62,752 nucleotides of DNA from Candidatus Nomurabacteria bacterium (GTDB lineage: Bacteria > Patescibacteriota > Minisyncoccia > Phycocordibacterales > UBA9973): NCBI GenBank assembly GCA_043758875.1, contig JAYVMR010000020.1, forward strand, positions 1 through 62,752, read 5' to 3'. A program made the position numbers and the translations under genes. Of the stretch, positions 15,401 to 33,698 are shown one piece after another (within the stretch, counting starts at the first letter, position 1; each line of letters begins with the position of its first letter). The notes under the pieces were generated by a model, which was not told the DNA's origin, did no database searches, and was given only the letters and a program-made list of their open reading frames with translations.

Positions 15401-16402
15401 AATGTCGATTATGAAATGATCGGTGATGAAAAATTCGCTTTCTTGCCCAGCGGTCCGACCTATACGATCGTCGATCACGCGCAAGCCGTCGGCAGCTATG
15501 ACATGTATATCAGTCACAGTGATGATACTGATACCATCACCAAGGAATCTTATTTTGGCAACGTTGCCATTACGGAAAAAAGCATTGGCACGGTCATGGT
15601 CGGCCCAGGCATCACTGACTACACGATCAGTATGGATGATAATGGTGACGGAGTGGAGGATCGTTCGATCGCCCCATCGTTGCCGGGCAGCGATACCGTG
15701 ACTCCGACGCCCACACCAACGCCGACACCTACTCCGGACCCTGTGCCGACACCGATTCCTCCGGTAACAATTCCGCCTTCTGACCCTATTCCTCCCATTC
15801 CCACTCCTTCGACAAACCCCATCCCGGTTGTAACTCCGACTCCTGCCCCTTCGACGGATTCGACAAGCTCACCGCAGGCTTCCGCCGGGCAAGTCATTCC
15901 TGTAGCACAATCCAGCACGCCGCAAGTGACGCCGGTCATAGTGAACAATATCAGCAACCCGGTCATGTATAGTGATACGACCACGGCTGATACGGCAGGT
16001 GATACCACGTCGCCTACACCTGAGACAACCAGTGATACTGCTATAGATAATACTATCGACACTACTGCCGATCCGGCTACGGTTGACGATTCTTCTGTTA
16101 GTAGCGTAGATAGCTCTGGCACTTCGGGTACCCCTGATCCCACTGATATTGCCGCAACTGATCCTGTTGATACGATTACTCCTTCAGCCGATACCACGAC
16201 TGCCTCTCAAGATAAGGTACTTACCAGCGTCGCCGATCGCTCGGCTCAACCGGAAGGGTCGCCACTCAGCGAACTATTGGCATTGCCATTGGCAGCCAAT
16301 GTCGGCAGTGCTTTGGTCGCCGGACAAAAAATGCTTCCTCTCATTGGTATGGTTCTTATATTCTTCATTATTGTTGCAGTATTCATCAAAAGACGCGGCT
16401 AG
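12485..16402 (+). CDS. Giant surface protein: signal peptide, beta-helix repeats, LCAT/PGAP1-like lipase domain, Pro/Thr linker, C-terminal TM anchor
   Basis: 1305 aa; repetitive Gly/Asn/Thr-rich beta-helix-like region; PIIIVPGITGS...YDWRLS...IIAHSMGG (GxSxG); TPTPTPTPTPTP; C-terminal LIGMVLIFFIIVAVFIKRRG. Confidence 0.8.
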   Translation: MQVSIKSKIVLIIIIVLSVRFFTSTTVAFASIPLPNIWTDATLDAATVYTVDGTSIVQPSATLTIPAGTQLIFTPGSSLVVKGALIANGTSDSHISIVGGPIPPFIPVAIPFAALTASAPSDTQSPEVSTLALSQSPDVAPLVINSVMMGADTPAVGKHSGIVFGAGSTSSLQYVDISNGLYGAVVSEGSVVTMDHVTISDCDTGILGVRGSLQLTNSAFNHIAIPVSWDFHGPFTHSDTTFSDTGLKGWIYGGELQAGDTMRLDSTDGEYEIPYVTVGQSASLVISPGVTIKMIDRQGVSIDTGGILSAIGTADQPIVFYGDGVCQYHSSIIYQAQSSATYQYVHFHDLCGGVGGTNHSTIVLSHDSFDVIAGIVVQMSDYSTLAIDDTVFHDIYQVVKLTDISKGIISNSAITLVNAGDPALYALNQSSLTITDSSIDTATTCLNVSQNGALVADHITLTHCGAAAINSSNTNGTTNPTGITLTNSEIAHSGTALQLGSALVLDVSHNTFHDNIRGVSLANMPATTLINNGWGNDSGPTIADNPTGTGDIIYSDNVPSVIYRPWIGMTPPPEHNPIIIVPGITGSFLSKDYGDGDELWPNIPKMILSPTDSFLNDLKLLQAGVPSSVRPVKVGDIIRSVGSTDVFAGMIQSLQQTGYTEGTDLFVLPYDWRLSNTQNQALLDDAIANALAKSGKSKVNIIAHSMGGLLVKDYIAQHPAAPLDHLFYIAVPHLGAPKAFKTLMYGDTMGFDFSVGPVHIPFLSADRVKTIVQNMPSAYELLPSQRYLDTISPYVTDLTQTPSALTLDAINTLMINDGRNEKMFPMAQALHDATDTLTTPSVASYDFAGCGATKTVSGFRLTATLKHRLSYAAGDGVVPVQSATAASDATQYYVTSASHSTMPSVAEVQNAIVDILNAKNVTASATLSADSHHCALSGDIVEVHSPVTLDIYDDVHRHTGPTASGEIEQNIPNVDYEMIGDEKFAFLPSGPTYTIVDHAQAVGSYDMYISHSDDTDTITKESYFGNVAITEKSIGTVMVGPGITDYTISMDDNGDGVEDRSIAPSLPGSDTVTPTPTPTPTPTPDPVPTPIPPVTIPPSDPIPPIPTPSTNPIPVVTPTPAPSTDSTSSPQASAGQVIPVAQSSTPQVTPVIVNNISNPVMYSDTTTADTAGDTTSPTPETTSDTAIDNTIDTTADPATVDDSSVSSVDSSGTSGTPDPTDIAATDPVDTITPSADTTTASQDKVLTSVADRSAQPEGSPLSELLALPLAANVGSALVAGQKMLPLIGMVLIFFIIVAVFIKRRG

Positions 16403-18111
16403 TGTTACAATCAATCCTGATGACGCAAAACCATGCTTTAACTATCCTGAAAACTGGCGCCAATGTCTTTTTGACCGGGGAACCGGGCGCGGGCAAAACC
16501 CATACTATCAATGAGTATGTGGAGTATTTGCGCCGCCATGGCATCGAGCCTGCCATTACCGCGTCGACCGGTATCGCGGCTACGCATATCCATGGTCAGA
16601 CCATTCATTCCTGGAGCGGTATCGGCATTCGCAAGAGCCTGTCGCCCTATGACTTGGACAAGATCGCTACCACGGAATACCTGGTGCGCCGTATCCAGAA
16701 AACGAAAGTCCTGATCATCGATGAGATCTCGATGATCGACGGCTATACGCTCGACTTGGTCGACGCGGTCTGCAAAACGATCAAGCAGCGCAGCGAACCG
16801 TTCGGTGGCTTGCAAGTCGTGCTGGTCGGCGACTTCTTTCAGCTGCCTCCGATATCTCGTAACCATGAAGCAGTACCGTTCGCATTTGAGGCGAATGTCT
16901 GGCGTGATATGAAACCGCTGGTGTGTTATCTGACCGAACAGCATCGTCAGAGCGACGAAGTATTTTTGGCATTACTGTCCGCTATTCGTCGCAATGATCG
17001 CATGGATGACCATATGATCCATCTGGAAAAGCGCCTGGTCAGTGAGGACAACAGCTTTGAACATATCGAAAACATGACACAGCTCTTCGCGCACAATGCC
17101 GACGTTGATGCCATCAATGCCGCCGCATTACGGAGTATCGAAGGACCGACCACTGCGTATACGATGCATAGCAAGGGCGGGGAAAGTATGGTCGCTAGTT
17201 TGAAAAAAGGCTGCCTGTCACCAGAGAAACTGGAATTAAAGATCGGTGCCGTGGTGATGTGCACCAAGAACAACACGCAGAAAGGATTCGTGAACGGCAC
17301 GACCGGCACGGTCGTGCGCTTCGAACCGGGCACCAAGTTTCCCATCATTCGCACCCAAGACGACCAAGAGCTGACGATCGAACCGATGGATTGGAGTATC
17401 GAAGAAGACGGTAAGATCAAGGCGAGTATCACGCAAGTGCCATTGCGCTTGGCCTGGGCCATCACCATTCACAAAAGCCAGGGTTTGTCGCTCGATACGG
17501 CCATGATGGATTTGCGGCAGGTCTTTGAATACGGACAGGGCTATGTGGCATTGTCGCGCGTGCGCAGCTTGGAAGGGTTGTACTTATCAGGATGGAATGA
17601 ACAAACCTTCCGCGTCCATCCGCGCATCTTGCAGCAAGACCAGACCTTCCAGGAATTGTCAGAGTCGGCACAGGGAGCATTTGCCAACTTGGAAACGGTG
17701 GATATTGAAACGATGCAAAAGAACTTCATTGTGGCTTCGGGCGGAGTATTGGATGGCAAGAAAGGCAAGCTGGCCAAGCCAGAAAAAAGAGACACGCTTG
17801 ATCTGACGAAGGAACTGATTGTGGTAGGGAAGTCATTGAAAGATATCGCCAAGGAACGAAAATTGGTACTGACTACCGTATTAGATCACATTGAAAAATT
17901 AATCATCGTCAAGCGCATCTCATCCGACGATATCGCATACCTGATCGATGACAAACTGCGCACCGCATTACCAGTCATCAGCGAAGCCTTCGCCACCTGC
18001 GACACGACCTTGCTCTCTCCGGTCTACAATCACCTCGGCGGCGCTTACACCTTCGACACCCTACGCCTAGCCCGCGCCATCATTTCCGCTCGCAACCAGA
18101 AGACGAAATAA
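16402..18111 (+). CDS. PIF1/RecD-type SF1 helicase with C-terminal HTH domain
   Basis: VFLTGEPGAGKTH (Walker A), LIIDEISMI, VLVGDFFQLPPI, ITIHKSQGLSLD; start is GTG 16402 or ATG 16420. Confidence 0.85.
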   Translation: MLQSILMTQNHALTILKTGANVFLTGEPGAGKTHTINEYVEYLRRHGIEPAITASTGIAATHIHGQTIHSWSGIGIRKSLSPYDLDKIATTEYLVRRIQKTKVLIIDEISMIDGYTLDLVDAVCKTIKQRSEPFGGLQVVLVGDFFQLPPISRNHEAVPFAFEANVWRDMKPLVCYLTEQHRQSDEVFLALLSAIRRNDRMDDHMIHLEKRLVSEDNSFEHIENMTQLFAHNADVDAINAAALRSIEGPTTAYTMHSKGGESMVASLKKGCLSPEKLELKIGAVVMCTKNNTQKGFVNGTTGTVVRFEPGTKFPIIRTQDDQELTIEPMDWSIEEDGKIKASITQVPLRLAWAITIHKSQGLSLDTAMMDLRQVFEYGQGYVALSRVRSLEGLYLSGWNEQTFRVHPRILQQDQTFQELSESAQGAFANLETVDIETMQKNFIVASGGVLDGKKGKLAKPEKRDTLDLTKELIVVGKSLKDIAKERKLVLTTVLDHIEKLIIVKRISSDDIAYLIDDKLRTALPVISEAFATCDTTLLSPVYNHLGGAYTFDTLRLARAIISARNQKTK

Positions 18112-18115
18112 GTCT

Positions 18116-18499
18116 ATGGAAAAAGATTTTGATCGCTGGAACAATTTAAAGAAACAACTTAATGAGGCTGAGCGTGTCGTGTATGTGCACCCGCGAGAAA
18201 TCTGGTGGTGTTCAATGGGAATAAATATTGGATCCGAGATAGACGGTAAAAATGAAAATTTTGAACGCCCTGTTATTGTGGTAAGAGTATATAACAAAGA
18301 ATCTCTTATCGTTTTACCTGTCACTACAAAAGAGAAAAACGATATATTTCATTTTAAAATTGAGACCAAAGAAAAAGTTGCATGGATAAAACTCACTCAA
18401 ACTCGCATGATCAGTAGTAAGCGATTGCTTCGAAAGGTGGATTTGTTGAACCAGGAACAATTTGATGTTCTTGTTAAAAAATGGAGAGACTTTCTTTAA
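18116..18499 (+). CDS. MazF/PemK-family toxin-like protein (no adjacent antitoxin)
   Basis: 127 aa; REIWWCSMGINIGSEIDGKNENFERPVIVV...LPVTT...KLTQTRMISSKRL resembles the PemK/MazF SH3-like barrel pattern; starts 5 nt after the helicase stop. Confidence 0.7.
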   Translation: MEKDFDRWNNLKKQLNEAERVVYVHPREIWWCSMGINIGSEIDGKNENFERPVIVVRVYNKESLIVLPVTTKEKNDIFHFKIETKEKVAWIKLTQTRMISSKRLLRKVDLLNQEQFDVLVKKWRDFL

Positions 18500-18504
18500 A
18501 AATC

Positions 18505-18529
18505 GAAACCCCCTTATAAAGGGGGTTTC
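18505..18529 (+). terminator. Terminator hairpin after the MazF-like gene
   Basis: gaaaccccc-ttataaa-gggggtttc. Confidence 0.7.
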
Positions 18530-18641
18530 TCGGAGGCCTAAGCCATAATGTTTATAGTGTAGCAGATAAGGAATTACCGTCAAGAAGATAGTAGTTCATT
18601 TTCTTTAGAAAATCTTGAAAGTGTGCGATTATTAAGGCGCG

Positions 18642-19022
18642 ATGCTCAGCAATCTCATGTACAAGAAATACCGTGAACAGGCGCGCATGCTGACGCATGC
18701 GCGCCTTGAGCATTTCAATACCTACTACAAACTCACCTACGGCCGCGTCTCCATCCGCAACCAAAAGACCCGCTGGGGCAGCTGCTCCAGCCGCGGCAAC
18801 CTCAATTTCAGCTACCGCATCCTCTTCCTCGAACCAGCCGCCCAAGACTACCTGATCATCCACGAACTCTGCCACCTCAAGCATTTCAACCACTCTCCGG
18901 CCTTCTGGTCCCTCGTGGCCGAACAATGCCCCGACTGGCAAAAATACCACCAAGAGCTGAGAACTAAGGGCAGCTGGAAGGTGTTGTGGGAGGGGTGGAG
19001 GAGGACTTTGGAGCGTGTCTAG
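18642..19022 (+). CDS. YgjP/DUF45-type (SprT/WLM-like) zinc metallopeptidase, short form
   Basis: TRWGSCSSRGNLNFSYRI and IIHELCHLKHFNHSPAFW (HExxH); visibly GC-richer than both neighbours. Confidence 0.75.
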   Translation: MLSNLMYKKYREQARMLTHARLEHFNTYYKLTYGRVSIRNQKTRWGSCSSRGNLNFSYRILFLEPAAQDYLIIHELCHLKHFNHSPAFWSLVAEQCPDWQKYHQELRTKGSWKVLWEGWRRTLERV

Positions 19023-19048
19023 GAAAGATTGAAAAAAGCCTCAAAAAA

Positions 19049-19057
19049 TGGCATTAT
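19049..19057 (+). promoter_or_regulatory. Extended -10 (TGgCATTAT) ending 6 nt before the hsdM ATG
   Basis: tggcattat-atgtaa-ATG. Confidence 0.55.
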
Positions 19058-19063
19058 ATGTAA

Positions 19064-20518
19064 ATGTTTGAACAGGCATTTAAGAATATTGATGATATTC
19101 TCCGAAAGGATGCGGGAAGTTCTAGTGAACTCGACTATATAGAACAAACTTCATGGATATTATTCTTGAAGTACTTAGATGATCTTGAAAAAGATAGAGT
19201 GATTACTGCAAAATTATCAAATAAAGGATATAAACATATTTTACCCCCAGACTTTACCTGGGAAGTATGGGCGTGTCCAAAAACTAAGGACGGTAAAATT
19301 GACTATAATAAAGCATTAACAGGAGAGGATTTAGAAGATTTTGTTAACCAAACACTTTTTCCTTTCCTTAAAAAATTTAAAGCTGAAGCTGAAAGCCCTG
19401 ATACTATAGAATATAAAATAGGTGAAATTTTTAGTGAGATAAAAAATAAGATTCAAAGCGGTTACAATCTTCGGGAGATTTTAAATATCGTTGACGGAAT
19501 GCATTTTCGTTCACAGGAAGAAAAACATGAACTCTCGCAACTCTACGAAGGCAAGATCAAAAACATGGGTAATGCTGGACGAAATGGTGGTGAATACTAT
19601 ACACCTCGACCTCTCATTAAAACGATTATAAAAGTTGTTAATCCAAAAATCGGGGACACTATCTATGATGGTGCTGTTGGCTCAGCCGGGTTCTTAGTCG
19701 AGGCATTTGAATATTTAAAACAGAGCAAAGACCTGTCTACTAAAGATCTTGAGACCCTACAAAAGAAAACATTCTGTGGCAAGGAAAAAAAGTCCCTTGC
19801 TTATATCATCGGTATTATGAACATGATTCTTCATGGTATTGATGCACCAAACATCATCCATACAAATACGCTCGCAGAAAATCTGGCTGATATACAAGAG
19901 AAAGATCGCTACGACATAGTTCTGGCCAACCCTCCGTTTGGCGGTAAAGAGCGTATTGAAGTACAACAAAACTTTCCCATCAAAACTGGGGAGACAGCAT
20001 TCCTATTTCTTCAACACTTTATAAAAATACTGAAAGCTGGTGGTAAGGCAGGTATCGTTATTAAAAATACCTTTCTTTCCAACACTGATAATGCCTCCGT
20101 GTCACTTAGAAAACTTTTACTTGAAAGTTGTAATTTGTACACGATCCTTGATTTACCTGGTGGCACTTTCACTGGAGCAGGAGTAAAAACAGTTATTCTT
20201 TTCTTTGAAAAAGGTGCTCCAACTAAAAAGATTTGGTATTACCAACTAAATCTTGATCGGAATTTAGGAAAGACTAATCCTTTGAATGAAAAAGATTTGG
20301 AAGACTTTGTAACTCTTCAAAAAACCAAGGTAGATTCAGAAAATTCTTGGTCTTTAGATGTATCTGATGTGGATCAGAAGACTTTTGATTTGTCAGTTAA
20401 AAACCTCAGCAAAGGAGCTGAAGTTGTCTTTCGTGATCCAAGGGACATTTTGAAAGAAATAAAAGCTCTGGACGGCGACACAAAAAAGGTCTTGGATGAA
20501 ATGAGTAATTTACTTTAA
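19064..20518 (+). CDS. hsdM: Type I R-M system methyltransferase subunit
   Basis: HsdM N-terminal pattern (ILRKDAG...YIEQTSWILFLKYLDD), GEYYTPRPL, DGAVGSAGFL, NPPFGG. Confidence 0.92.
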   Translation: MFEQAFKNIDDILRKDAGSSSELDYIEQTSWILFLKYLDDLEKDRVITAKLSNKGYKHILPPDFTWEVWACPKTKDGKIDYNKALTGEDLEDFVNQTLFPFLKKFKAEAESPDTIEYKIGEIFSEIKNKIQSGYNLREILNIVDGMHFRSQEEKHELSQLYEGKIKNMGNAGRNGGEYYTPRPLIKTIIKVVNPKIGDTIYDGAVGSAGFLVEAFEYLKQSKDLSTKDLETLQKKTFCGKEKKSLAYIIGIMNMILHGIDAPNIIHTNTLAENLADIQEKDRYDIVLANPPFGGKERIEVQQNFPIKTGETAFLFLQHFIKILKAGGKAGIVIKNTFLSNTDNASVSLRKLLLESCNLYTILDLPGGTFTGAGVKTVILFFEKGAPTKKIWYYQLNLDRNLGKTNPLNEKDLEDFVTLQKTKVDSENSWSLDVSDVDQKTFDLSVKNLSKGAEVVFRDPRDILKEIKALDGDTKKVLDEMSNLL

Positions 20519-20522
20519 ATTT

Positions 20523-21971
20523 ATGAAATTAGAATCTGTTACAATAAAAAATTATAGAAGCATTGAGACAATATCATTCGACATTTCTCAATTGGATGAT
20601 AATACATTTACGTATGGATTAATTGGGGTAAATGAGGCAGGTAAATCTACAATACTCAAAGCCTTAGCTTTAAAAGATGGGTTGAGGAACGAAAAAGGTG
20701 AAAAGCTGCCTCTTGCAAAGGATTTTAAAGATAAGACACAAGACATAGAAATTGACTATCTTTACATGCTAGATAAAAAAGAACAGAAGGAGGCAATGGA
20801 GAGTCTTGCAATAACTTCACCAGGTGTTGATTTTGGTGGCGTAGATCTGAGTAAAATTAATTACACTATATCGTTTGCCTTTAGCTCACCCAGTGAGACC
20901 TTAGAGGCAATTGAGGTAAAAACTGTAGATAGTGCCAACGAACACAAGGTAACTCTTGAGGATCATTTAAGGACTTTTGTTTCTGGAAAGACGCACGATT
21001 CAATTTTTTGGACAGCCGAAGATCGTTACTTAATATCACAACCTATAAATTTGGCTGAGTTTGCCGCAAACCCAGAGAACATATCTATACCATTAAAAAA
21101 TTGCTTCGCATTAGCGGGTATAGTGGGGCAAAGTGCAATTCAAGCAAAAATAGCTTTAATTACAGATTCTACTGAGCGTGAACAACTAAAGACTGAATTA
21201 AGTGAAAAAGTGAGTGAGCATATAAATAAAGCATGGCCTAAACATCCCATAAAGATAACCTTTGATATCTCTGACGGTCTTATTAATTTTCACGTACATG
21301 ATGAGGGTGCAAAAGGAAAGGCAAAGACTGCCGATCAGCGTAGTGACGGATTCAAACAGTTTGTATCTTTCTTATTAACTGTTTCTGCACAAAGTAGGAA
21401 TGATGAACTCGCTAATTCAATTTTATTACTCGATGAACCTGAGACACATCTTCACCCACAAGCTCAGGAAGATTTATTAAAGGAACTAATAAAGATAACT
21501 GATAATCAAAGAAACAACGTGGTATTTTTTGCTACCCATTCGAATTATATGATCGATAAGAATGACTTAAGCAGAAACTACAAGATATTTAAGAATCCAA
21601 ATAAGAAGACTGAGAAAGAGAAAACAGAAAAAGAACAATTTGATAAAAAAGCTTCAACATACGCTAGTGTAACCTATCAGGTTTTCGATATTGCTAGCAC
21701 TGACTATCATAATGAGCTTTATTCAAAGCTCCATGAAAAATATCAAGATACTGATTCATCAGATGAGAAAAGATGTGGAATTTTAAATTTCGACTCGAAC
21801 TTCTTTGCGGCTGAAAAGGGTTTGAAGAAAGATAAGCCCTGGAAAGGAAATGTAAATAAAGCAACATTACCTACCTATATTAGAAACTGTATTCATCATT
21901 CTGATAATGGTGATACTTATAAAGATGAGGATTTAAGAAAATCTATTGAATTACTCTTTTCGTACTTATGA
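20523..21971 (+). CDS. ABC/OLD-type (AAA_15/21-like) ATPase with C-terminal putative HEPN (RNxxxH) domain; restriction-linked gene
   Basis: Walker A GVNEAGKST, signature-like RSDGFKQF, Walker B ILLLDEPETHLHPQAQ, FFATHS; C-terminal LPTYIRNCIHHSDNG (R454-H459, nt 21882-21899); the ATPase call is firm, the HEPN call is inference. Confidence 0.7.
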   Translation: MKLESVTIKNYRSIETISFDISQLDDNTFTYGLIGVNEAGKSTILKALALKDGLRNEKGEKLPLAKDFKDKTQDIEIDYLYMLDKKEQKEAMESLAITSPGVDFGGVDLSKINYTISFAFSSPSETLEAIEVKTVDSANEHKVTLEDHLRTFVSGKTHDSIFWTAEDRYLISQPINLAEFAANPENISIPLKNCFALAGIVGQSAIQAKIALITDSTEREQLKTELSEKVSEHINKAWPKHPIKITFDISDGLINFHVHDEGAKGKAKTADQRSDGFKQFVSFLLTVSAQSRNDELANSILLLDEPETHLHPQAQEDLLKELIKITDNQRNNVVFFATHSNYMIDKNDLSRNYKIFKNPNKKTEKEKTEKEQFDKKASTYASVTYQVFDIASTDYHNELYSKLHEKYQDTDSSDEKRCGILNFDSNFFAAEKGLKKDKPWKGNVNKATLPTYIRNCIHHSDNGDTYKDEDLRKSIELLFSYL

Positions 21972-23191
21972 GACATAACTGGCAAACAAAAAAACTAGGC
22001 GAGGTTTGTAATATAGAAATTGGTAAAACCCCGTCCCGATCAAACAAGAAGTTCTGGGATACTGAAAAAATGACCAACAATATTTGGTTATCTATAAGAG
22101 ATCTTTCAAATACGAAGGATCAGTTTATTTCTGATAGCAGAGAGTATATATCTGATAAAGGCGCTTCTTTACTCAAGATAGTGAAAAAGGATACATTGCT
22201 GGTCAGCTTTAAATTAACCATTGGAAGACTTGCATTTACAGCTACAGATTTGTATACAAATGAGGCCATTGCCGCACTAAATATTATTGACCATAAAGAA
22301 ATAAGTAAAGAATATTTGTATCAATACCTTAATAATTTTGACTGGGACAGTGCTTCAAAAAATGATGTAAAGGTGAAAGGAAGAACCCTCAATAAGGCAA
22401 AGTTAAAAGAGATTGAAATAAAATACCCCTCCTCTTCCGAACAAAAACGAATTATAAAAATTCTCGATGAAGCTTTTGAGAAATTAGAAAAGATAAAACA
22501 AAACACAGAAAAGAATTTACAAAATTCAAAAGAGCTTTTTGAGTCTTATTTACAAAGTGTATTTACCAAAAATGATAAACACAGAACTCTTGGTGATAAG
22601 GAATTAGTTCAAATTATCGATGGTGATCGAGGTAAAAATTACCCTAAAAAATCTGATTTTCTTGATGAAGGATATTGTTTATTTTTAAATACAAAGAATG
22701 TCAGACCTTATGGTTTTGATTTTAAGGTCGTTATGTTTATTACACAAAAGAAGGATACTCAACTTGGTAATGGAAAAATAAAAAGGAGCGATGTGTTACT
22801 CACAACACGAGGAACAATTGGTAATATTGCTGTATATGATAAAAATGTTTCCTATGACAACATAAGAATAAATTCCGGGATGTTAATTTTTCGGCCGAAT
22901 ATAAATTTGATTATTCCAGAATATCTGTTTGCAATATTTCAGTCAGGAATCATGAAATCACAAATTAAAAAACATGTCTCAGGTGCAGCTCAACCTCAAT
23001 TACCTATAAAAACTCTAGTTAATTTTTCCATCCCAGTTCCACCTGTGTCAGACCAAAAAACTATCGTCAAAAAACTCGATCAGCTTTCTGAGCAAACAAA
23101 AAAGCTCGAATCTATTTATCAAAAGAAGCTTTTAGCCATTGAAGAGCTTAAGAAGTCTATTTTGAATAAAGCCTTCACAGGAGAGCTATAA
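21968..23191 (+). CDS. hsdS: Type I R-M specificity subunit
   Basis: Two TRD-like halves separated by a coiled conserved region (SEQKRIIKILDEAFEKLEKIK / SDQKTIVKKLDQLSEQTKKLE); ATGA overlap with the upstream gene. Confidence 0.88.
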   Translation: MRHNWQTKKLGEVCNIEIGKTPSRSNKKFWDTEKMTNNIWLSIRDLSNTKDQFISDSREYISDKGASLLKIVKKDTLLVSFKLTIGRLAFTATDLYTNEAIAALNIIDHKEISKEYLYQYLNNFDWDSASKNDVKVKGRTLNKAKLKEIEIKYPSSSEQKRIIKILDEAFEKLEKIKQNTEKNLQNSKELFESYLQSVFTKNDKHRTLGDKELVQIIDGDRGKNYPKKSDFLDEGYCLFLNTKNVRPYGFDFKVVMFITQKKDTQLGNGKIKRSDVLLTTRGTIGNIAVYDKNVSYDNIRINSGMLIFRPNINLIIPEYLFAIFQSGIMKSQIKKHVSGAAQPQLPIKTLVNFSIPVPPVSDQKTIVKKLDQLSEQTKKLESIYQKKLLAIEELKKSILNKAFTGEL

Positions 23192-23210
23192 TATTGTATA
23201 AATTAGGCAT

Positions 23211-24038
23211 ATGAAGAAGATCAAAATCAAAAACCAGATAATCTCAGTCAAGCTCTCAGAGAATGAGAATGACTACATTTCCCTCACAGATATTGCTAAA
23301 TTCAAGGACGTTGAGGCTACCGGTATTGTCATTGCAAACTGGCTTTCTACCAAGTACACCATTCAATTTATAGGGGCATGGGAGCAGCTTCATAATCCTG
23401 ATTTTAATGTTATGGAATTCCATAACATTAAAAATAACGCTGGTTCTAATGGGTTTATCCTTTCTTCGTCTCGTTGGATCAAAAGTACCAATGCAATAGG
23501 TGTGCGATCGTCTCCTGGACGGTACGGAGGAGGAACTTTTGCTCACAAGGACATTGCATTCGAGTTTGCAACATGGATTTCACCTGAATTTAAGCTCTAT
23601 CTCATAAAGGAGTTTCAGCGTCTTAAAGTAGAAGAGAATCAACGAATATTGCTTGGATGGGATGCAAAGCGAATGCTTACAAAGATTAATTATAGAATTC
23701 ACACAGATTCGATAAAAGAAAATATCGTATTGCCACAAAAACTATCTAGTAAAGATGCGACTATGGTGTATGCAAACGAGGCAGATGTTTTAAATATGGC
23801 ACAGTTTGGAATGACAGCTCAACAATGGCGAACAAAAAATAAAGCAAAAGCTGGTAACATTCGTGATTATGCAGATGTGTACCAGCTGGTATGTTTGGCA
23901 AATATGGAAAGCCTCAATGCTGAATTTATTAAAATGGGGATGAGCCAGAAAGATAGATTGTTAAAACTTAATGAAACAGCTATCACGCAAATGAAATCAC
24001 TTTTGGCAAATAGTAGTGTTAAGAAACTTTTGAAATAA
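23211..24038 (+). CDS. KilA-N domain protein embedded in the R-M operon
   Basis: DYISLTDIAKF...GTFAHKDIAFEFATWISPEFKLYLIKEF is a KilA-N pattern; helical C-terminal half. Confidence 0.8.
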   Translation: MKKIKIKNQIISVKLSENENDYISLTDIAKFKDVEATGIVIANWLSTKYTIQFIGAWEQLHNPDFNVMEFHNIKNNAGSNGFILSSSRWIKSTNAIGVRSSPGRYGGGTFAHKDIAFEFATWISPEFKLYLIKEFQRLKVEENQRILLGWDAKRMLTKINYRIHTDSIKENIVLPQKLSSKDATMVYANEADVLNMAQFGMTAQQWRTKNKAKAGNIRDYADVYQLVCLANMESLNAEFIKMGMSQKDRLLKLNETAITQMKSLLANSSVKKLLK

Positions 24039-24042
24039 AATT

Positions 24043-26376
24043 ATGAACGAAGCAGAAACACGAGCAGAATACATTGATCCAAAGTTAAAGGAATCTGGCT
24101 GGGGTGTTGTCGATGGGTCTAAAATCTTACGCGAATTTATTATCGCTCCTGGAAAAATTGAAATTGGTGGGATAAAAAGTAAGCAGCAAATTGCTGATTA
24201 TATTTTGGTGTATAACAACCGTAAACTTGCTGTTGTCGAAGCCAAGAAAGAATCCCTTGAACCAACTGAGGGTGTAGCACAAGCAAAAACTTATGCAGGA
24301 AAATTGCAGATCGCATACACCTACTCAACAAATGGGCATGAAATCTATGAAATAGGAATGGAATCTGGTATTGAAGGTACTGTTGCAAAGTTTCCAACTC
24401 CGGATGAGCTTTGGAATAAAACATATCTCAAAGAGATTGAACAGAATAATGAATGGAAAGAAAAGTTCACTAGTGTGCCATTTGAAGATGTGAACGGTAG
24501 TAAGAATGCACGGTACTACCAAGAAATTGCCGTCAATCGAGTCATGGATGCTATCGCAGAAGAAAAGAAACGAATATTACTTACTCTTGCTACGGGTACA
24601 GGTAAGACATTTATTGCGTTTCAAATTGCATGGAAACTATTTCAAAGCAGATGGAATGTATCAAAAGAGGGATCTCGACGACCTCGCATATTATTTCTTG
24701 CAGATAGAAACATACTGGCTGATCAGGCTTTTAATGCCTTCGGTGTGTTCTCTGAAGATGCTCTGGTCCGTATAACTCCAAATGATATAAAGAAAAAAGG
24801 TGCTGTTCCGATGAACGGTAGTGTTTTCTTTGCAATCTTTCAGACTTTTATGAGTGGTCCAAATGATACTCCATACTATGGAGACTATCCCACGGATTAT
24901 TTTGACTTCATCATTATTGATGAATGTCACCGAGGTGGTGCAAACGACGAATCTAACTGGCGAGGTATTCTTGAATACTTCTCTCCAGCGGTTCAACTAG
25001 GTCTTACAGCTACTCCAAAACGAAAAGACAATACAGATACATATAAGTATTTTGGTGAACCTGTTTACATTTACTCGCTAAAAGAAGGTATTAATGACGG
25101 TTTCCTCACACCGTTCAAAGTCAAAAGAATTAAGACCACGCTTGATGAATATATCTATACGAGAGACGACGATGTTGTTGAAGGTGAAGTGGAAGAAGGA
25201 AAAATCTATACAGAAGATGATTTTGCTCGAGGGAATATAAGTATTATTGAACGCGAGGAAGTTCGGGTAAAAATCTTCCTGAGTGAAATTAATCAACATG
25301 AAAAAACGATTGTATTTTGTGCTACACAAGGTCATGCACTGCTTGTTAGAGATTTAATAAATAAATATAAAGAAAGTAAAGACCCTAACTATTGCCAACG
25401 TGTGACTGCCAACGATGGATTCCTTGGTGAACAATATTTGAGAGAGTTTCAGGACAACGAAAAATCAATACCGACGATTCTAACTACTTCACAAAAACTT
25501 TCTACTGGTGTAGATGCTCGAAACATTCGAAATATTGTGCTTATGCGTCCCGTCAATTCAATGATTGAATTCAAGCAAATAGTAGGTCGAGGCACGCGAC
25601 TTTTTGATGGTAAGGAGTATTTCACTATTCTTGATTTCGTAGACGCATATCATCACTTTCTGGATCCAGAATGGGATGGTGAGCCTATTGCTGAAACTGC
25701 CAGTGAAGATTCTGAAAAAGATATTCATGATGGTGACACAAAGCATGCTTCTAATATAAGTGACCTACTTACTGTTGGTGAACCTTTAGGGCAGAGTACT
25801 AAACTTAAAATCAAGCTTCGAGACGGAAAAGAGCGCGAAATACAACACATGGTGTCTACATTTTTTATAGATGCTGATGGCCGCCCAATGTCTGCAGAAG
25901 AGTTTTTAAATAAGCTATATGGAACTTTTCCAGCATTCTTTAAAAACGAGGAAGAGCTTAGGGTTATTTGGTATAGCCCTGTAACACGTAAGGTATTTTT
26001 AGAAAAAATCTCAGAGTTGGGTTTTGGTAAAGATCAACTTGAAGGTGTTCAAAGAGTGATTAACGCTGAAAATAGTGATTTGTTTGATGTACTCGGATAC
26101 ATTGCTTTTGCTCTACAGCCTATTACGCGCGTTGAAAGAATTCAAAATACTAAATATGATATTTTAGATGGTCTAGATGAAAAACATCGAGAGTTTATTG
26201 AGTTTGTCCTTGCGAAATATCAAGAACGTGGCGTTGAAGAATTAGACGAAGAAAAATTGCCCCAATTACTCAATCTCAAATATCATGCCATATCTGATGC
26301 AGAACGAATTTTAGGTGGAGTGGAAAAAATAAGATCTTTATTTTTTGATTTTCAGAGAAATCTTTATACAAAATAA
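24043..26376 (+). CDS. hsdR: Type I restriction endonuclease/translocase subunit
   Basis: N-terminal PD-(D/E)xK-type region (AETRAEYIDPKL...ADYILVY...VVEAKK), LATGTGKT, IIDECHRG, SQKLSTGVDA, C-terminal EcoEI_R_C-like tail. Confidence 0.92.
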   Translation: MNEAETRAEYIDPKLKESGWGVVDGSKILREFIIAPGKIEIGGIKSKQQIADYILVYNNRKLAVVEAKKESLEPTEGVAQAKTYAGKLQIAYTYSTNGHEIYEIGMESGIEGTVAKFPTPDELWNKTYLKEIEQNNEWKEKFTSVPFEDVNGSKNARYYQEIAVNRVMDAIAEEKKRILLTLATGTGKTFIAFQIAWKLFQSRWNVSKEGSRRPRILFLADRNILADQAFNAFGVFSEDALVRITPNDIKKKGAVPMNGSVFFAIFQTFMSGPNDTPYYGDYPTDYFDFIIIDECHRGGANDESNWRGILEYFSPAVQLGLTATPKRKDNTDTYKYFGEPVYIYSLKEGINDGFLTPFKVKRIKTTLDEYIYTRDDDVVEGEVEEGKIYTEDDFARGNISIIEREEVRVKIFLSEINQHEKTIVFCATQGHALLVRDLINKYKESKDPNYCQRVTANDGFLGEQYLREFQDNEKSIPTILTTSQKLSTGVDARNIRNIVLMRPVNSMIEFKQIVGRGTRLFDGKEYFTILDFVDAYHHFLDPEWDGEPIAETASEDSEKDIHDGDTKHASNISDLLTVGEPLGQSTKLKIKLRDGKEREIQHMVSTFFIDADGRPMSAEEFLNKLYGTFPAFFKNEEELRVIWYSPVTRKVFLEKISELGFGKDQLEGVQRVINAENSDLFDVLGYIAFALQPITRVERIQNTKYDILDGLDEKHREFIEFVLAKYQERGVEELDEEKLPQLLNLKYHAISDAERILGGVEKIRSLFFDFQRNLYTK

Positions 26377-26397
26377 ATCTTTATCTTCTCTTTAATC

Positions 26398-26420
26398 TTT
26401 CTTCAGATATTCTTGATCAC
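26398..26420 (+). promoter_or_regulatory. 23-nt promoter-proximal motif, copy 1 (tttcttcagatattcttgaTcac)
   Basis: 22/23 identity (19 consecutive) to 33627-33649; a TATACT box follows after 8 nt. Confidence 0.5.
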
Positions 26421-26441
26421 TCATTGTATATACTGGCTCAC

Positions 26442-26693
26442 ATGCCACCACCAATATATATCACTGTTAAATACAATCAGACATTACAAGTAATTACAGG
26501 AGTAGGGGAGGATCCGATGATCATGAGCGAGGGATCGACGTTTTCATGGCTGTTGCAATGCATTTTTACCTCGTATCCGGAGATTCCCAAGACCTATGCG
26601 CCTGGCGTATTGCGCTTCTTGGTCAATGGCGTGGCGCCCAAGACGTACAGTCCGTTATTAGATGGGGATGAAGTCTGCTTTTGGACGGAGTGA
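26442..26693 (+). CDS. MoaD/ThiS-like beta-grasp (ubiquitin-like) protein lacking a C-terminal GG
   Basis: 83 aa from ATG; YITVKY...TFSWLLQCIFTSYPEI...FLVNGV...LLDGDEVCFW follows the MoaD/ThiS pattern but ends ...FWTE. Confidence 0.5.
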   Translation: MPPPIYITVKYNQTLQVITGVGEDPMIMSEGSTFSWLLQCIFTSYPEIPKTYAPGVLRFLVNGVAPKTYSPLLDGDEVCFWTE

Positions 26694-26699
26694 AGAAAT

Positions 26700-27536
26700 A
26701 TGAAGAAAGAAATTATTCAAACTTTAACGAGTAGTTTTGAAGCCCATGCTCATAAAACAACTGAGGATGTAGAATTTTGGCTCGCAAGAGATGTACAGCA
26801 TTTACTGGGGTATAATCAATGGCGTAATTTTTTAAGCGTTATTTTAAAGGCCAAAATAGCGTGTGAGGGCAGTGGTTATAATCCTGGCGATCATTTTGCT
26901 GACGTCAGCAAAATGATCGCTTTAGGCAAAGACGGTCAACGCAAAATTGAAGATATTATGCTTACTCGGTATGCCTGCTATCTTATAGCCCAAAACGGCG
27001 ATCCGCGTAAAGAAGAAATTGCTTTTGCTCAAAATTATTTCGCCGTACAAACCAGAAAGCTTGAATTAATTGAAAAAAGAATACAAAAGTTTGAACGTTT
27101 AATGGCGCGGCAAAAGTTAACTGAAACCGAAAAAGAACTCTCTGGCATTATCTTCCAACAAACGGGGAGTGACAAGGACTTTGGAATTATTCGCAGCAAG
27201 GGAGACAAGGCGCTGTTTGGATATACCACTCAAGAAATGAAACGACGACTCAATATTCCCGAAAGTCGCGCATTGGCAGATTTTCAGCCTACTATTATTT
27301 TAAAGGCGAAAGATTTTGCGACAGAAATTACTATTTTTAATTCAAAAGCAAAAATGCTGACTTCGGAACAATTTATTTCTGCAGAACATGTTATTAATAA
27401 TAAAAGCGTGAGAAAAACATTATTAAATCGAGGTATTATCCCCGAGCAATTGCCTGTTGAAGAAGATATTAAAAAAGTAGAAAGAAAATTAAAATCAGAA
27501 GACAGTAAAAATATCAAAAAAACAGAAAAGCTGTAA
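26700..27536 (+). CDS. DinD-like (DNA-damage-inducible protein D / Bro-N-related) protein
   Basis: [20 protein letters not shown]...[32 protein letters not shown] matches the DinD pattern. Confidence 0.72.
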
Positions 27537-27594
27537 GGAATTATATTTACAAAATAATCATTAATCAAGTCAATTTGTAAATAATCCGTCAAAT

Positions 27595-27603
27595 TGCTAT
27601 AGT
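27595..27603 (+). promoter_or_regulatory. Extended -10 (TGcTATAGT) ending 6 nt before ATG 27610
   Basis: tgctatagt-aatact-ATG. Confidence 0.6.
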
Positions 27604-27609
27604 AATACT

Positions 27610-28347
27610 ATGTCTACCTGGATACAACACAAGCGCAAGGCAGCGGGGCTTTCTCAAACCGAAGTGGCAAAAAGTCTGGGTATTTCCCGCCCAACGTATC
27701 TGAAGCTGGAGCAAGGCGCACTGAAAGCCAGCGAGCAACAAAAGGCCTTGCTGGCAAGTATTTTCGGCGTATCGCATCATACGCTTGAAAAAAATAGTGT
27801 GGAAAAAAAGCCTCAGACCAAGGATATACACATCAGGGAAATTCCTCGGGAACATACCGAGAAATTCAAGCAAGTATTGCTGTATATTGTCAGCAAGGTC
27901 GGCGGTCGTCCCAATATCGGACAAACGGCATTGTACAAACTGCTGTATTTCATCGATTTTGACTATTATGAAAAATACCAACAGTATTTGATCGGGGCCA
28001 CGTATATTAAGAATACCCACGGGCCGAGTCCGGTCTCTTTTGCCAAGATCGTTCGTGATTTGGAGGAGCAAGGCAAGCTGGTGGAAGTGCGTAGTAAGTT
28101 CTTTCAGTATGATCAGAAAAAATACGTGGCCACCGGTGAGTCAGAAGTGTCATTGCTCAGCGCATCCGAACTGAAACATATCAATGACGAGCTCGAACGA
28201 TTGGCGTCAAAAACAACCAAGGAATTGTCCGACCTGTCGCATATTGACACGCCATGGCGCGTGGCCGAGGACAAGGCCGTGCTGAACTACCGCCATGTAT
28301 TTTATCGGCCGGACGAAACATCAGTAGGCGACTATGAGCCACTTTGA
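27610..28347 (+). CDS. XRE-HTH plus DUF4065 (Panacea/SocA-like) antitoxin
   Basis: N-terminal KRKAAGLSQTEVAKSLGISRPTYLKLEQG; then TALYKLLYFIDFDYYEKY...THGPSP, typical of DUF4065. Confidence 0.78.
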   Translation: MSTWIQHKRKAAGLSQTEVAKSLGISRPTYLKLEQGALKASEQQKALLASIFGVSHHTLEKNSVEKKPQTKDIHIREIPREHTEKFKQVLLYIVSKVGGRPNIGQTALYKLLYFIDFDYYEKYQQYLIGATYIKNTHGPSPVSFAKIVRDLEEQGKLVEVRSKFFQYDQKKYVATGESEVSLLSASELKHINDELERLASKTTKELSDLSHIDTPWRVAEDKAVLNYRHVFYRPDETSVGDYEPL

Positions 28348-28672
28348 TCAATTGCCTGAATTCGAAAAAGAATTCAAAAAGCTTTCAAAAAAATATTCCA
28401 GTCTTGGGCGCGATATTGAAGATATCAAGGCAGTCCTTTCACAGTCACCGACCGGCATCGGTAAGAATTTTACCATTATTAAAATAGTGAATGACGTAAA
28501 AATAGTGAAAGTCCGCATTCACTGCGAATCCCTCAGGGCCAGAACGATCAGGCTGATATACGCGTATCATGCCGACCGTGTCACGTTTATGTATATTCAG
28601 TTGTACGCAAAGGGTGACAAAGAAAATGAAGACAAAGCCCGTATCGATGACTATATCAACAAGATAGTGTAG
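28334..28672 (+). CDS. RelE/ParE-superfamily-like toxin (putative)
   Basis: 112 aa; FEKEFKKLSKKY...VKVRI...IRLIYAYHADRVTFMYIQLYAKGDKEN follows the RelE/HigB-type pattern; 14-nt overlap with the antitoxin 3' end. Confidence 0.62.
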   Translation: MSHFDQLPEFEKEFKKLSKKYSSLGRDIEDIKAVLSQSPTGIGKNFTIIKIVNDVKIVKVRIHCESLRARTIRLIYAYHADRVTFMYIQLYAKGDKENEDKARIDDYINKIV

Positions 28673-28681
28673 GATAGTGCT

Positions 28682-29245
28682 ATGAACATAACCTCCGCGC
28701 AATTTATTAAGGGAGTCACGGATGGCAGGGAAGTCGAGGATTTGGCGTTTCCGCAGGTGGCCTTTATAGGCCGATCGAATGTCGGGAAGTCGAGTACTAT
28801 CAATACATTGACCAGGGTCAAAGGCTTGGCCAAGACCAGTTCGTTTCCCGGGCGCACACGGCAGATCAATGTCTTTTTGATCAATAACAAGTTTTATCTC
28901 ATTGACTTGCCGGGCTACGGCTATGCCAAGGTTTCCAAAGTCGATCGCGCGGCCATCGAGGAAGTCATCAACAGCTATCTGTTCAATCCCGCCATCATGC
29001 AAAAGAAAGTCGTGCTGATCATCGACGCATTCGTCGGTCCGACCGAGTCTGACTTGGAAATGCTCGACGCGCTGTTAGAGCGCACAAAAGACGTCGTGAT
29101 ACTGGCCAATAAGATCGACAAGGTCAAAAAATCCCATCAAAAGGCGACTCTGGATAAGATCAAGGAAACATTGCACGGGCAAACAGTCATTCCTTTTTCT
29201 GCAGAGGAAAAGATCGGAGTGAGTGAAATTTTATCCCTTTTTTAA
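28682..29245 (+). CDS. engB: Ribosome-biogenesis GTPase YihA/EngB
   Basis: FIGRSNVGKSSTIN (G1), DLPGYGY (G3), ANKIDK (G4). Confidence 0.9.
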   Translation: MNITSAQFIKGVTDGREVEDLAFPQVAFIGRSNVGKSSTINTLTRVKGLAKTSSFPGRTRQINVFLINNKFYLIDLPGYGYAKVSKVDRAAIEEVINSYLFNPAIMQKKVVLIIDAFVGPTESDLEMLDALLERTKDVVILANKIDKVKKSHQKATLDKIKETLHGQTVIPFSAEEKIGVSEILSLF

Positions 29246-32200: not shown

Positions 32201-32653
32201 ATGCGGTACTGGCTCTTGAAAAGCGAAGGCGATTGCTACTCAATCGATGATTTGCAACGCGACCAGCAAACGGCCTGGACCGGCATTCGCAACTACCAAG
32301 CGCGCAATTTCATGCGCGATGACATGAAGTCGGGGGACAAGGCATTGTTCTATCATTCCAATAGCAAGCCGACGGGCATTTATGGTGTGGCAAAGATCGT
32401 CAGCAACGCCAAACCCGACGCAACGCAATTCGACAAAAAGGACGGTCATTATGATGCTACCAGCACAAAGGCCGATCCGCGATGGTATTGCGTGGACGTG
32501 TTATTCGTCAAAAAGTTTCCCGAACCGATTTCTCTGCAAGAAATAAAGAATGATCCCCACCTCGAAGGCATGATGGTGCGCCAACCCGGCAGCCGCCTGT
32601 CCGTGCAGCCCGTGTCAGAAAAACACTTTAATTACATCACCAAGGAATTGTAA
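32201..32653 (+). CDS. EVE (PUA-like) domain protein
   Basis: MRYWLLKSEGDCYSIDDL...WTGIRNYQARNFMRDDMKSGDKALFYHS. Confidence 0.85.
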   Translation: MRYWLLKSEGDCYSIDDLQRDQQTAWTGIRNYQARNFMRDDMKSGDKALFYHSNSKPTGIYGVAKIVSNAKPDATQFDKKDGHYDATSTKADPRWYCVDVLFVKKFPEPISLQEIKNDPHLEGMMVRQPGSRLSVQPVSEKHFNYITKEL

Positions 32654-32674
32654 GAAAATTTCACTTAGGAGCTG

Positions 32675-32725
32675 AGCTGCTAAGTGTTAGGTACTCGGTA
32701 CCTAACACAATGGCAGCTGCTAAGT
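32675..32725. repeat. 11-bp-stem palindrome bracketed by an 11-nt direct repeat
   Basis: agctgctaagt at 32675-32685 and 32715-32725; palindrome gtgttaggtac-tcg-gtacctaacac at 32684-32708. Confidence 0.75.
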
Positions 32726-32794
32726 AGTCACCATCTGTACTTTTATGGGTTGTATGGTAAGGTAAATAAAAAGCACATAAAAAAAGGAGGAAAA

Positions 32795-33574: not shown

Positions 33575-33626
33575 TATCAGGGGGGGGCTTTTTTTATTAT
33601 CTTTATGATAAAGTTTTGCTTTACTA

Positions 33627-33649
33627 TTTCTTCAGATATTCTTGAACAC
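33627..33649 (+). promoter_or_regulatory. 23-nt promoter-proximal motif, copy 2 (tttcttcagatattcttgaAcac)
   Basis: Matches 26398-26420; a TATGAT box follows after 8 nt. Confidence 0.5.
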
Positions 33650-33683
33650 CAATGTTCTATGATGGTATGGTGGACAGGACATC

Positions 33684-33692: not shown

Positions 33693-33698
33693 TATCGT

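Follow-up and report, generated by a model that had tools for sequence, protein, structure and literature searches.

A predicted type IB restriction-modification operon of Candidatus Nomurabacteria with two exchangeable embedded genes, encoding an ABC-type ATPase and a KilA-N protein

We analyzed a stretch of 62,752 nucleotides (nt) from Candidatus Nomurabacteria bacterium (GenBank assembly GCA_043758875.1, contig JAYVMR010000020.1, positions 1 to 62,752), hereafter the window, and focused on a type I restriction-modification (R-M) operon in which two additional genes are lodged between the genes for the subunits. Five co-directional open reading frames (ORFs) occupy positions 19064-26376 of the + strand: hsdM (19064-20518, 484 amino acids [aa]), a gene for an ATP-binding cassette (ABC)-type ATPase (20523-21971, 482 aa), hsdS (21968-23191, 407 aa), a KilA-N gene (23211-24038, 275 aa), and hsdR (24043-26376, 777 aa). 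They are separated by 4, -4, 19, and 4 nt, which is exactly the layout given in an initial annotation of the sequence. In type I enzymes, the M2S1 complex methylates a bipartite site that is read by HsdS, while R2M2S1 translocates DNA and cuts it when it is unmodified. Classical enzymes of the EcoAI family require R, M, and S alone. The ATPase and KilA-N genes are referred to here as embedded genes.

The three core genes could be assigned by profile matches. HsdM carries the Pfam domains N6_Mtase (E = 1.1e-60) and HsdM_N (2.7e-8), and it matches the PADLOC model MTase_I over its full length (6e-156). HsdS has two target-recognition domains; it matches Methylase_S in two stretches (7.1e-36) and the PADLOC model Specificity_I over its full length. 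Its identity to the HsdS proteins of related loci is just 23-38%, as expected given that recognition domains are variable. HsdR contains the Pfam domains ResIII, Helicase_C, HSDR_N, and EcoEI_R_C (3.4e-22), and residues 1-775 of 777 align to the NCBIfam family NF046051 (EcoAI/FtnUII) with 812.8 bits against a cutoff of 550. Because HsdR exceeds this equivalog cutoff, we place the system in type IB. These matches bear out the earlier description of a type I operon with two extra genes between its subunits and supply a family for it. Taken together, they show what is predicted to be an intact type I R-M gene set of the EcoAI family.

The AT-richness that had been noticed in the initial annotation is evident from every measure that we computed. 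The GC content of the block is 35.4%, compared with 50.5% in the left flank and 48.9% in the right flank, and the block is the lowest-GC stretch of 7.3 kb within the window, where nonoverlapping windows have a mean GC of 0.477 +/- 0.023 and a minimum of 0.419. Similarly, GC at third codon positions (GC3) is 0.27-0.36 in the five operon genes versus 0.51-0.66 in flanking housekeeping genes, and synonymous codon usage differs between block and flanks (chi2 = 746, df = 41, p = 2.5e-130). Given its low GC, GC3, and codon usage, the operon is foreign by composition and was horizontally acquired. The low-GC DNA is a mosaic that reaches past the five genes and takes in a MazF-like gene on one side and a gene of the DinD/Bro-N type on the other. 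In agreement with the initial annotation, a domain scan of the ORFs on both sides (8975-31598) found no integrase or transposase domain, and a search for flanking direct or inverted repeats that might mark island borders gave only short matches at chance level.

Comparison with other genomes and contigs, whose loci are denoted here by L-numbers, suggests how the two embedded genes came to be where they are. Neighboring ORFs in these loci were typed by Pfam scan; tblastn with the Hsd proteins of the window missed divergent R-M genes. The sequence comes from a metagenome scaffold, and megablast of 15 kb against all complete Escherichia coli genomes gave no match, which excludes E. coli as the source. 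Among named organisms, those with the cassette's nearest relatives are metagenome-assembled genomes (MAGs) of Saccharibacteria, Paceibacterota, and Parcubacteria, and these point to a probable host within the Patescibacteria. L165, whose ATPase is 81% identical and the closest among relatives with long flanks, has the order HsdM-ATPase-HsdS-HsdR with no KilA-N gene. In L162, which holds the closest KilA-N relative (87% identical), the order is HsdM-[210 aa]-[220 aa]-HsdS-KilA-N-HsdR, and in L008 a helix-turn-helix (HTH)-Panacea gene fills the hsdS-hsdR slot. Because the occupants of L162, L165, and L008 differ separately, the two slots are filled independently, and the comparison shows the operon to be an apparent scaffold for two independently exchangeable embedded genes. 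The pair of ORFs in the hsdM-hsdS slot of L162 (7535-8826) overlap each other and belong to no Pfam family.

These findings modify the earlier picture in several respects. Acquisition of the block as one unit, which the initial annotation had suggested, is plausible for the last transfer, but close relatives swap the two inserts independently. The exact five-gene order was found only in the source contig, yet each half of it recurs. The M-ATPase-S arrangement is seen in MAGs of Saccharibacteria, Paceibacterota, Adlerbacteria, Alphaproteobacteria, Flavobacteriia, and Leptospirae, and the order M-ATPase-S-R occurs in L003, L010, L014, and L165 and, in a variant form, in L005, L008, and L029. The class of arrangement has also been described before, so that the unusualness of embedded genes as such was overstated. 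Genes embedded in type I operons have long been known from PrrC in EcoprrI and from the rlo genes of Campylobacter (PMC1484252, PMC2610378). In addition, a systematic survey counted 17,432 embedded genes across BREX, DISARM, and type I systems and put forward 145 candidates (bioRxiv 10.1101/2024.01.29.577857).

The first embedded gene encodes a protein with the Pfam domains AAA_15/AAA_21. It matches the PADLOC models Old (5.4e-27, 92.8 bits) and AriA (9.9e-24), the latter over the full model (residues 1-344 aligned to positions 1-373 of 373), and PADLOC has no dedicated model for it. Its motifs comprise a Walker A (G35-x4-G40-K41), a signature-like Q272-R-S-D-G, a Walker B (D304-E305), and H339; among 60 homologues, all of these residues are invariant except G276. 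The AlphaFold model has a mean confidence (pLDDT) of 90.7, and its top Foldseek matches, at E of about 1e-15, are PtuA of the Septu/retron complexes, GajA, OLD, and SMC/Rad50 heads. The whole-protein search returned ABC heads alone, and the matches to Old, GajA, and AriA are likewise confined to the ATPase head. Membership in a named family was not indicated: the NCBIfam scores are 48.2 bits against a cutoff of 500 for PtuA, 49.2 against 250 for retron Eco8, 77 against 720 for MAD2, 33 against 420 for MAD3, and 52 against 400 for MAD5. Furthermore, neither the ATPase nor the neighboring genes matched Toprim or DUF4435, and no HNH gene (PtuB) lies beside the ATPase gene.

Behind the ATPase head lies a C-terminal domain of about 110 aa (residues 369-482, nt 21627-21968) that is mostly helical. 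Four of its residues, F388, H396, R454, and S474, do not vary across 41 sequences, and N455 hardly does. Searches of Pfam and PADLOC at E <= 10 returned nothing for the domain, and a profile search of PDB sequences was likewise negative. A Foldseek search with its model (pLDDT 87.7) gave no fold match in PDB (best hit at E 4.5, TM 0.22) or BFVD, a negative result that is not absolute, as Foldseek is weak on small helical domains. A profile of the domain recovered 875 clusters at 50% identity among 1.84 billion representatives, and in 10 of 10 clusters sampled from these 875 it lies C-terminal to AAA_15/AAA_21. From this distribution, we take it to be a dedicated appendage of this ATPase clade.

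The initial annotation had labeled the C-terminus HEPN, which would make the protein an ATPase with a C-terminal HEPN RNase, comparable to a PrrC-type anticodon nuclease. The string R454-N-C-I-H-H does resemble the HEPN motif R-[NHD]-x3-H, it lies 28 residues from the end of a mostly helical domain, and the combination of an ABC ATPase N-domain with type I linkage parallels PrrC (PMC1484252). R454 is invariant in alignments of 17 and 41 sequences and at least 90% conserved among 60. However, neither histidine of the string is invariant. In different members, D, N, R, or A can stand at +4 and Y at +5, giving variants such as RNCIDH, RNAIHY, and RTCIAH, in which at least one His is always kept. 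The catalytic triad of PrrC, Arg-x3-Glu-x36-52-His (PMC2610378, PMC1484252), is absent, since R454 is followed by N-C-I-H with 28 residues remaining. Finally, the searches of Pfam, PADLOC, PDB sequences, and PDB and BFVD folds that are described above were all negative for HEPN, and PrrC is linked to type IC systems, between S and R, whereas the gene described here sits between M and S of a type IB system. The HEPN label is therefore not supported, and we regard an anticodon nuclease of this kind as very improbable.

More can be said about the ATPase from the company that it keeps in other genomes. A full-length search gave at least 955 proteins of this family, about 470-480 aa in length and distributed over many phyla. 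Twelve relatives reach at least 44% identity and have flanks that could be used; 10 of these are inside a type I locus, and in 8 of the 12 the gene directly follows hsdM at a distance of -14 to +10 nt; it usually overlaps the next gene, which is most often hsdS. Across 25 full-length relatives, the upstream gene encodes an N6_Mtase protein in 8 and the downstream gene a Methylase_S protein in 9. Relatives of 37-42% identity are not beside hsd genes, and distant plasmid-borne relatives stand alone, beside insertion sequence elements or an integrase. The ATPase gene also accompanies type I systems of unrelated lineages (L004, L012, and L035); in L004, for example, the ATPase is 63% identical, but HsdM is 37% and HsdR 34% identical. 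We found no recurrent partner gene among the neighbors of the relatives, no KilA-N gene in any of 80 ATPase loci, and no close relative in viral contigs, where there were only distant partial ABC matches.

This distribution bears on whether the ATPase might be an integral accessory subunit or regulator of the type I lineage, with a part in assembly, in the alleviation of restriction after DNA damage or entry into a new host, or in turnover. The close spacing to hsdM and overlap with hsdS among close relatives would fit such a role, as would the co-inheritance of the ATPase with EcoAI-type Hsd genes across phyla and the lack of a recognizable effector domain. MADS likewise sets an ABC ATPase beside methylase and S-like genes, and the protein has a PADLOC match to mad3 at 4.4e-18. 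Yet equally close EcoAI-type operons do without the ATPase or have other genes in the slot (L162), the ATPase gene has passed from one type I lineage to others that are unrelated to it, its relatives from 37-42% identity downward have no hsd neighbors, and the classical enzymes of the family make do with their three subunits. On balance, we think it unlikely that the ATPase is a component of the enzyme.

An alternative is that the ATPase watches over the R-M system. PrrC is an ABC-NTPase encoded in the EcoprrI operon; the R-M enzyme keeps it silent, and the anti-restriction peptide Stp of T4 activates it (PMC1484252). PrrC and PARIS have been reviewed together as "R-M guardians" (PMC12707154). 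PARIS is a known sensor of anti-restriction proteins and offers a point of comparison for the AriA-like head. By analogy, the ATPase could be a second-line guardian of this kind, a proposal that we consider a real possibility while falling short of believing it. In such a scheme, production of the ATPase would be matched to that of the methylase core, and the protein would stay latent. The 4-nt gap after hsdM and the 4-nt overlap with hsdS are tight enough to fit stoichiometric production with that core. Its nucleotide state would change when the R-M complex is interfered with or in response to a phage product; the C-terminal domain would then serve as an effector or as a partner-binding module, with H396, R454, N455, and S474 forming an active or binding site. 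If the ATPase does guard R-M as PrrC and PARIS do, its C-terminal domain would represent a new effector or sensor module in that logic.

The second embedded gene belongs to a family with a wider range of contexts. The protein matches Pfam KilA-N (6.5e-19), PHROG 2657 (7.6e-58), and the PADLOC model PDC-S22 (PDLC04962; 9.7e-121, residues 2-273 aligned to profile positions 5-273 of 281); there was no significant match to a solved structure for the family. It has at least 8,000 homologues, and the best 120 matches are 70-88% identical and come from several phyla. An R-M gene is adjacent in about 15-25% of 80 relatives, and the remaining contexts are varied. Specifically, the upstream neighbor is an N6_Mtase gene in 7 of 62 cases and the downstream neighbor a Methylase_S gene in 5 of 61, and a few are genes of the HsdR or Eco57I/MmeI type. 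Relatives also occur after tail genes of prophage-like regions, in a Streptococcus integrative and conjugative element (ICE), in phage EW, and between the repressor and integrase of Streptococcus satellite phages; members of the family in phages are annotated "transcriptional regulator." PDC-S22 is a defense candidate of the "guilt-by-embedding" kind. The only other paper found on it lists it as a PADLOC detection, and neither the name PDC-S22 nor PDC-S13 appears in the supplement of Payne et al. 2024. In the survey, 96.7% of embedded genes are co-oriented with the host system, and embedding served as a predictor of defense for which seven of nine tested candidates were active (bioRxiv 10.1101/2024.01.29.577857). 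Most likely, the KilA-N protein is predicted to act on its own as a nucleic-acid-binding protein in defense, exclusion, or regulation and is not a subunit of the R-M enzyme.

The KilA-N gene also contains an unexpected feature at the level of its nucleotide sequence. The window contains just three perfect palindromes whose arms reach 11 nt or more, and two of them lie in the KilA-N gene and in a DinD-like gene. One is a 32-nt palindrome, TTTTAATGTTATGGAA followed by TTCCATAACATTAAAA, at 23402-23433 within the KilA-N gene (aa 64-75). Another, of 34 nt, is at 26887-26920 (aa 63-74) in the DinD-like Bro-N gene (26700-27536, + strand, 278 aa), which lies downstream of hsdR and is likewise AT-rich (GC3 0.30). 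Each is about 190 nt from the start codon of its gene. The third palindrome of the window (52586-52611), with 13-nt arms, reads GCCTCGATGACGA and then TCGTCATCGAGGC. The DinD-like protein scores 351.9 bits against a cutoff of 242 for the NCBIfam DinD equivalog NF008573 (PRK11525), and it matches PADLOC PDC-S13 over its full length (1.3e-111) as well as PHROG 8036 (1.3e-89). No LexA box was found near its gene in a search of 18000-29000.

We compared the KilA-N palindrome across 83 distinct homologous sequences (L082-L172). In all 83, between 13 and 16 of the 16 Watson-Crick positions are kept, with 45 distinct arms and a central GAATTC that is nearly invariant. The codons on the two sides form pairs that are exact reverse complements (ATG/CAT, GTT/AAC, ATC/GAT, CCC/GGG, CTG/CAG, GGC/GCC, TAT/ATA, and ACG/CGT), so that the palindrome forces the residues encoded by its two arms to change together; the compensatory changes alter the encoded amino acids. 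When the palindrome is treated as a hairpin of 14 pairs, 95.4% of the cells in the alignment are paired, compared with 77.7 +/- 0.7 after shuffling (0 of 500 shuffles), and double-sided changes account for 215 cells versus 62 +/- 8 in shuffles. Controls in which the hairpin was slid along the alignment pair at 28-61%. The counts of pairs and of pair types in the KilA-N alignment were not above those of shuffles. The folding z-score of the KilA-N hairpin is -4.5, within a range of -4.2 to -5.0 for the hairpins.

A similar pattern holds for the DinD-like gene. Over 41 distinct sequences (L173-L256), mostly from prophage-like viral contigs, 91.4% of cells are paired versus 78.6 +/- 1.0 in shuffles, compensatory change is present at 10 of 13 pairs versus 5.2 +/- 0.9 (0 of 500 shuffles), and five of five measures are above every shuffle. 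Furthermore, dinD of Escherichia coli K-12 (L257, 3761-4585) has an imperfect hairpin at the same peptide, DDHFEEILDMVK, with the layout GACCAT-T-TCGAGG-AGAT-CCTCGA-T-ATGGTC. Homology between the KilA-N and DinD-like proteins was not detected by BLASTP or hhalign (probability 0.7%), and a shared origin of their hairpins is therefore not supported. Matches to Rfam over the whole window were limited to two tRNAs, with none at the hairpins. A full-text literature search returned nothing relevant on such intragenic palindromes, and we found no mention of them in the available part of the survey (bioRxiv 10.1101/2024.01.29.577857).

Several mechanisms could maintain these palindromes. They could be DNA-level dyads, cruciforms or hairpins in single-stranded DNA (ssDNA), RNA hairpins under strict selection, or products of neutral quasipalindrome correction, a form of template switching that could maintain palindromes neutrally. 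Outside one Lys/Arg site, G.U and A.C mismatches are about equally frequent, which offers no indication that selection acts on the sense RNA in particular. A further-reaching idea is that the palindromes act as functional cis-elements of a hitherto undescribed kind, to which the local amino acids are subordinated and which serve as a switch of defense candidates, gating hsdR in the present operon, alongside an ATPase that represents a new family of R-M guardians. Such an element could act as an RNase or translational control point, as a cruciform or ssDNA sensor of structure-specific phage nucleases, or as a dyad bound by the very protein that it helps to encode, and the palindrome in the KilA-N gene would also gate expression of the downstream hsdR. 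We consider this combined proposal doubtful. It has two attractions: the hairpin could explain the control of two common candidate defense families, and the imperfect version in E. coli K-12 dinD makes the element directly testable in a standard organism.

The same palindrome can be turned into an argument that one or both embedded genes have no role in defense and are hitchhikers of phage origin. For instance, a KilA-N regulator might bind its own palindrome and gate read-through into hsdR, much as C-proteins do in type II systems. Phages, satellites, and ICEs commonly carry members of the family, which has a regulator annotation; most of its relatives have no R-M neighbors; a conserved dyad lies inside the gene just upstream of hsdR; and the equal tolerance of G.U and A.C would fit a dyad that is read at the level of DNA. 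Still, the palindrome is kept in every genomic context and not only upstream of hsdR, so it is intrinsic to the KilA-N gene. In addition, 45 different arms in 83 sequences are expected of a hairpin stem and are awkward for a sequence-specific operator, and embedded genes in the same orientation were, in the survey, overwhelmingly related to defense and not to mobility (bioRxiv 10.1101/2024.01.29.577857). We judge the hitchhiking scenario improbable.

A consensus scan found a promoter-like TTGAAA-17-(TG)CATTAT at 19029-19057 on the + strand, ending 6 nt before the hsdM ATG, and it is a plausible candidate for an operon promoter giving a leaderless or near-leaderless mRNA. All five genes probably share one transcript that starts at a promoter shortly before hsdM. 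The -10 element that the initial annotation had marked there (19049-19057) is present, but promoter-like matches as a class are not enriched (37 versus 31.5 +/- 5.9 expected from shuffles), and the block contains 70 occurrences of TATAAT with at most one mismatch. Because -10-like boxes are so frequent and unenriched, we attach little weight to such motifs. This applies as well to the TGtATAAAT box, TGTATAAAT at 23195-23203, which does lie 7 nt upstream of the KilA-N ATG as had been described; it is one of many such strings in AT-rich DNA, and the case for the internal promoter that had been proposed from it is statistically weak. As a separate observation, -10-like boxes stand 6-9 nt before the starts of the glutamyl-tRNA synthetase (GluRS), hsdM, and HTH-Panacea genes (10210-10234, 19049-19063, and 27585-27609), and most genes examined have no Shine-Dalgarno sequence. 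Leaderless mRNAs, or mRNAs with very short leaders, may be common in this organism.

The operon is part of a mosaic defense island that adjoins engB. On its left side, a PIF1-like helicase gene (16402-18111, about 50% GC) is followed after 4 nt by a gene for a MazF/PemK-like toxin (18116-18499, + strand; Pfam PemK_toxin 2.4e-14, PHROG MazF-like 1.8e-16; GC 35%, GC3 0.34). This gene has no adjacent antitoxin ORF, and an 11-bp GC-rich strong hairpin lies directly 3' of it (18505-18529). It is a neighbor in the same island and not a member of the operon. Next comes a YgjP-like metallopeptidase ORF (18642-19022, + strand; Pfam YgjP-like 3.6e-36). The initial annotation was right in treating it as a GC-rich flank (GC3 0.80), but it is only a C-terminal fragment, covering profile positions 102-206 of 207. 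An intact YgjP gene lies between the type I locus and engB in L004 (18456-19703), and in L008 (6539-9974) engB is beside hsdM. Those two loci suggest a hotspot adjacent to engB, and the YgjP fragment is probably what is left of an older type I locus that resided there and was overwritten.

To the right of hsdR is a small ORF of 83 aa (26441-26693, + strand, with a start at 26424 or 26441), which the initial annotation had called MoaD-like. It is GC-richer than the operon (GC3 0.54), as had been claimed, but it has no match in Pfam, PADLOC, NCBIfam, or PHROG and was not called by the gene caller of the source. It ends ...LLDGDEVCFWTE, bears a superficial likeness to the ThiS/MoaD beta-grasp, and abuts the DinD-like gene. 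At the engB-proximal edge of the island, a gene with HTH_3 (7.3e-9) and SocA/Panacea (Pfam SocA_Panacea 7.8e-15) domains, antitoxin-like (27610-28347, + strand; GC3 0.55), overlaps by 14 nt an ORF of 112 aa without a family match (28334-28672, + strand; GC3 0.50). These two may be a candidate PanA-type toxin-antitoxin pair with a new toxin; the HTH-Panacea gene in the hsdS-hsdR slot of L008 is related to the one here. The island is followed by engB (28682-29245), which has a host-like composition. A few kb downstream, gene calls place an EVE-domain gene and a gene resembling the TrwB coupling protein of type IV secretion systems at 32201-35606, and these may belong to a conjugative or DNA-uptake apparatus. 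Further stretches of low GC (37.6-42.5%) occur at 1-5000, 43000-46000, and 58000-60000, one of them beside a tRNA-Trp gene (45475), and may be additional acquired islands.

Our overall interpretation is that this is an EcoAI-type R-M operon that serves as a scaffold for two exchangeable accessory genes, a possible ATPase guardian and a KilA-N gene that most likely acts autonomously, in a defense island by engB. We favor this account with some confidence, and several considerations weigh against it. The activity of the R-M operon and the accessory roles are predictions from sequence. Because the C-terminal domain of the ATPase resembles no known nuclease or effector, an effector role is a guess. 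The absence of close relatives of the ATPase from viral contigs fits a host-side role and is no proof of defense, and its strict position after hsdM and translational coupling would fit an R-M cofactor equally well. PDC-S22 and PDC-S13 are candidates, and the phage members of the KilA-N family carry a regulator annotation. Lastly, the promoter assignment depends on a consensus match that is unenriched over chance.

With these reservations, the locus illustrates how type I operons can be docking sites for other immune genes, here through two exchangeable slots in one operon of the EcoAI type. Patescibacteria are thought to rely heavily on restriction-modification. Moreover, the ATPase family is widespread and has no model in any defense catalogue. 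The lack of a model of its own is explained by the survey pipeline, which set aside embedded proteins scoring at least 50 bits against known defense profiles.

Comparison with known systems helps to separate what is familiar from what is new. The EcoAI and EcoEI prototypes of type IB share with this operon an HsdR above the EcoAI/FtnUII cutoff with an EcoEI_R_C domain and canonical architectures of HsdM and HsdS; they are three-gene loci, whereas the present one has two embedded genes, another base composition, and an uncultured host. PrrC in EcoprrI, the model for a latent second-line defense that the R-M enzyme keeps silent, is likewise a co-oriented ABC-type NTPase gene inside a type I hsd operon, co-expressed with the subunits as is probable here, and encodes a single polypeptide with a regulatory ATPase head and a small C-terminal domain. 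It differs in its type IC setting between hsdS and hsdR, in its length (341-416 aa versus 482 aa), and in having the catalytic triad. AriA of PARIS, PtuA of Septu and retrons, GajA, and OLD have the ABC head fold and its motifs in common with the ATPase; OLD and GajA have Toprim, whereas the ATPase has neither Toprim nor AriB, PtuB, or a retron and bears its own C-terminal domain of about 110 aa instead. MADS, the eight-gene methylation-associated defense system, also combines an ABC ATPase with methylase and S-like genes, but the equivalog scores are far below the cutoffs. The rlo genes of Campylobacter jejuni are extra ORFs, several of them for ATPases, that similarly lie between hsd genes in an arrangement like M-x-S-y-R. 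They belong to other protein families, with no sequence relation detected, and RloC has a zinc-hook/coiled-coil insert and an anticodon-nuclease triad. Finally, the candidates PDC-S22 and PDC-S13 of Payne et al. 2024 have full-length matches here, with the KilA-N gene likewise co-oriented inside a type I operon, and the pipeline of that study would bin the ATPase as "known defense-associated" for scoring at least 50 bits to OLD and AriA. Against this background, the class of arrangement is already known, and what is newly seen is the double occupancy of a single operon, the hsdM-linked ATPase family, and the orphan C-terminal domain that this family carries.

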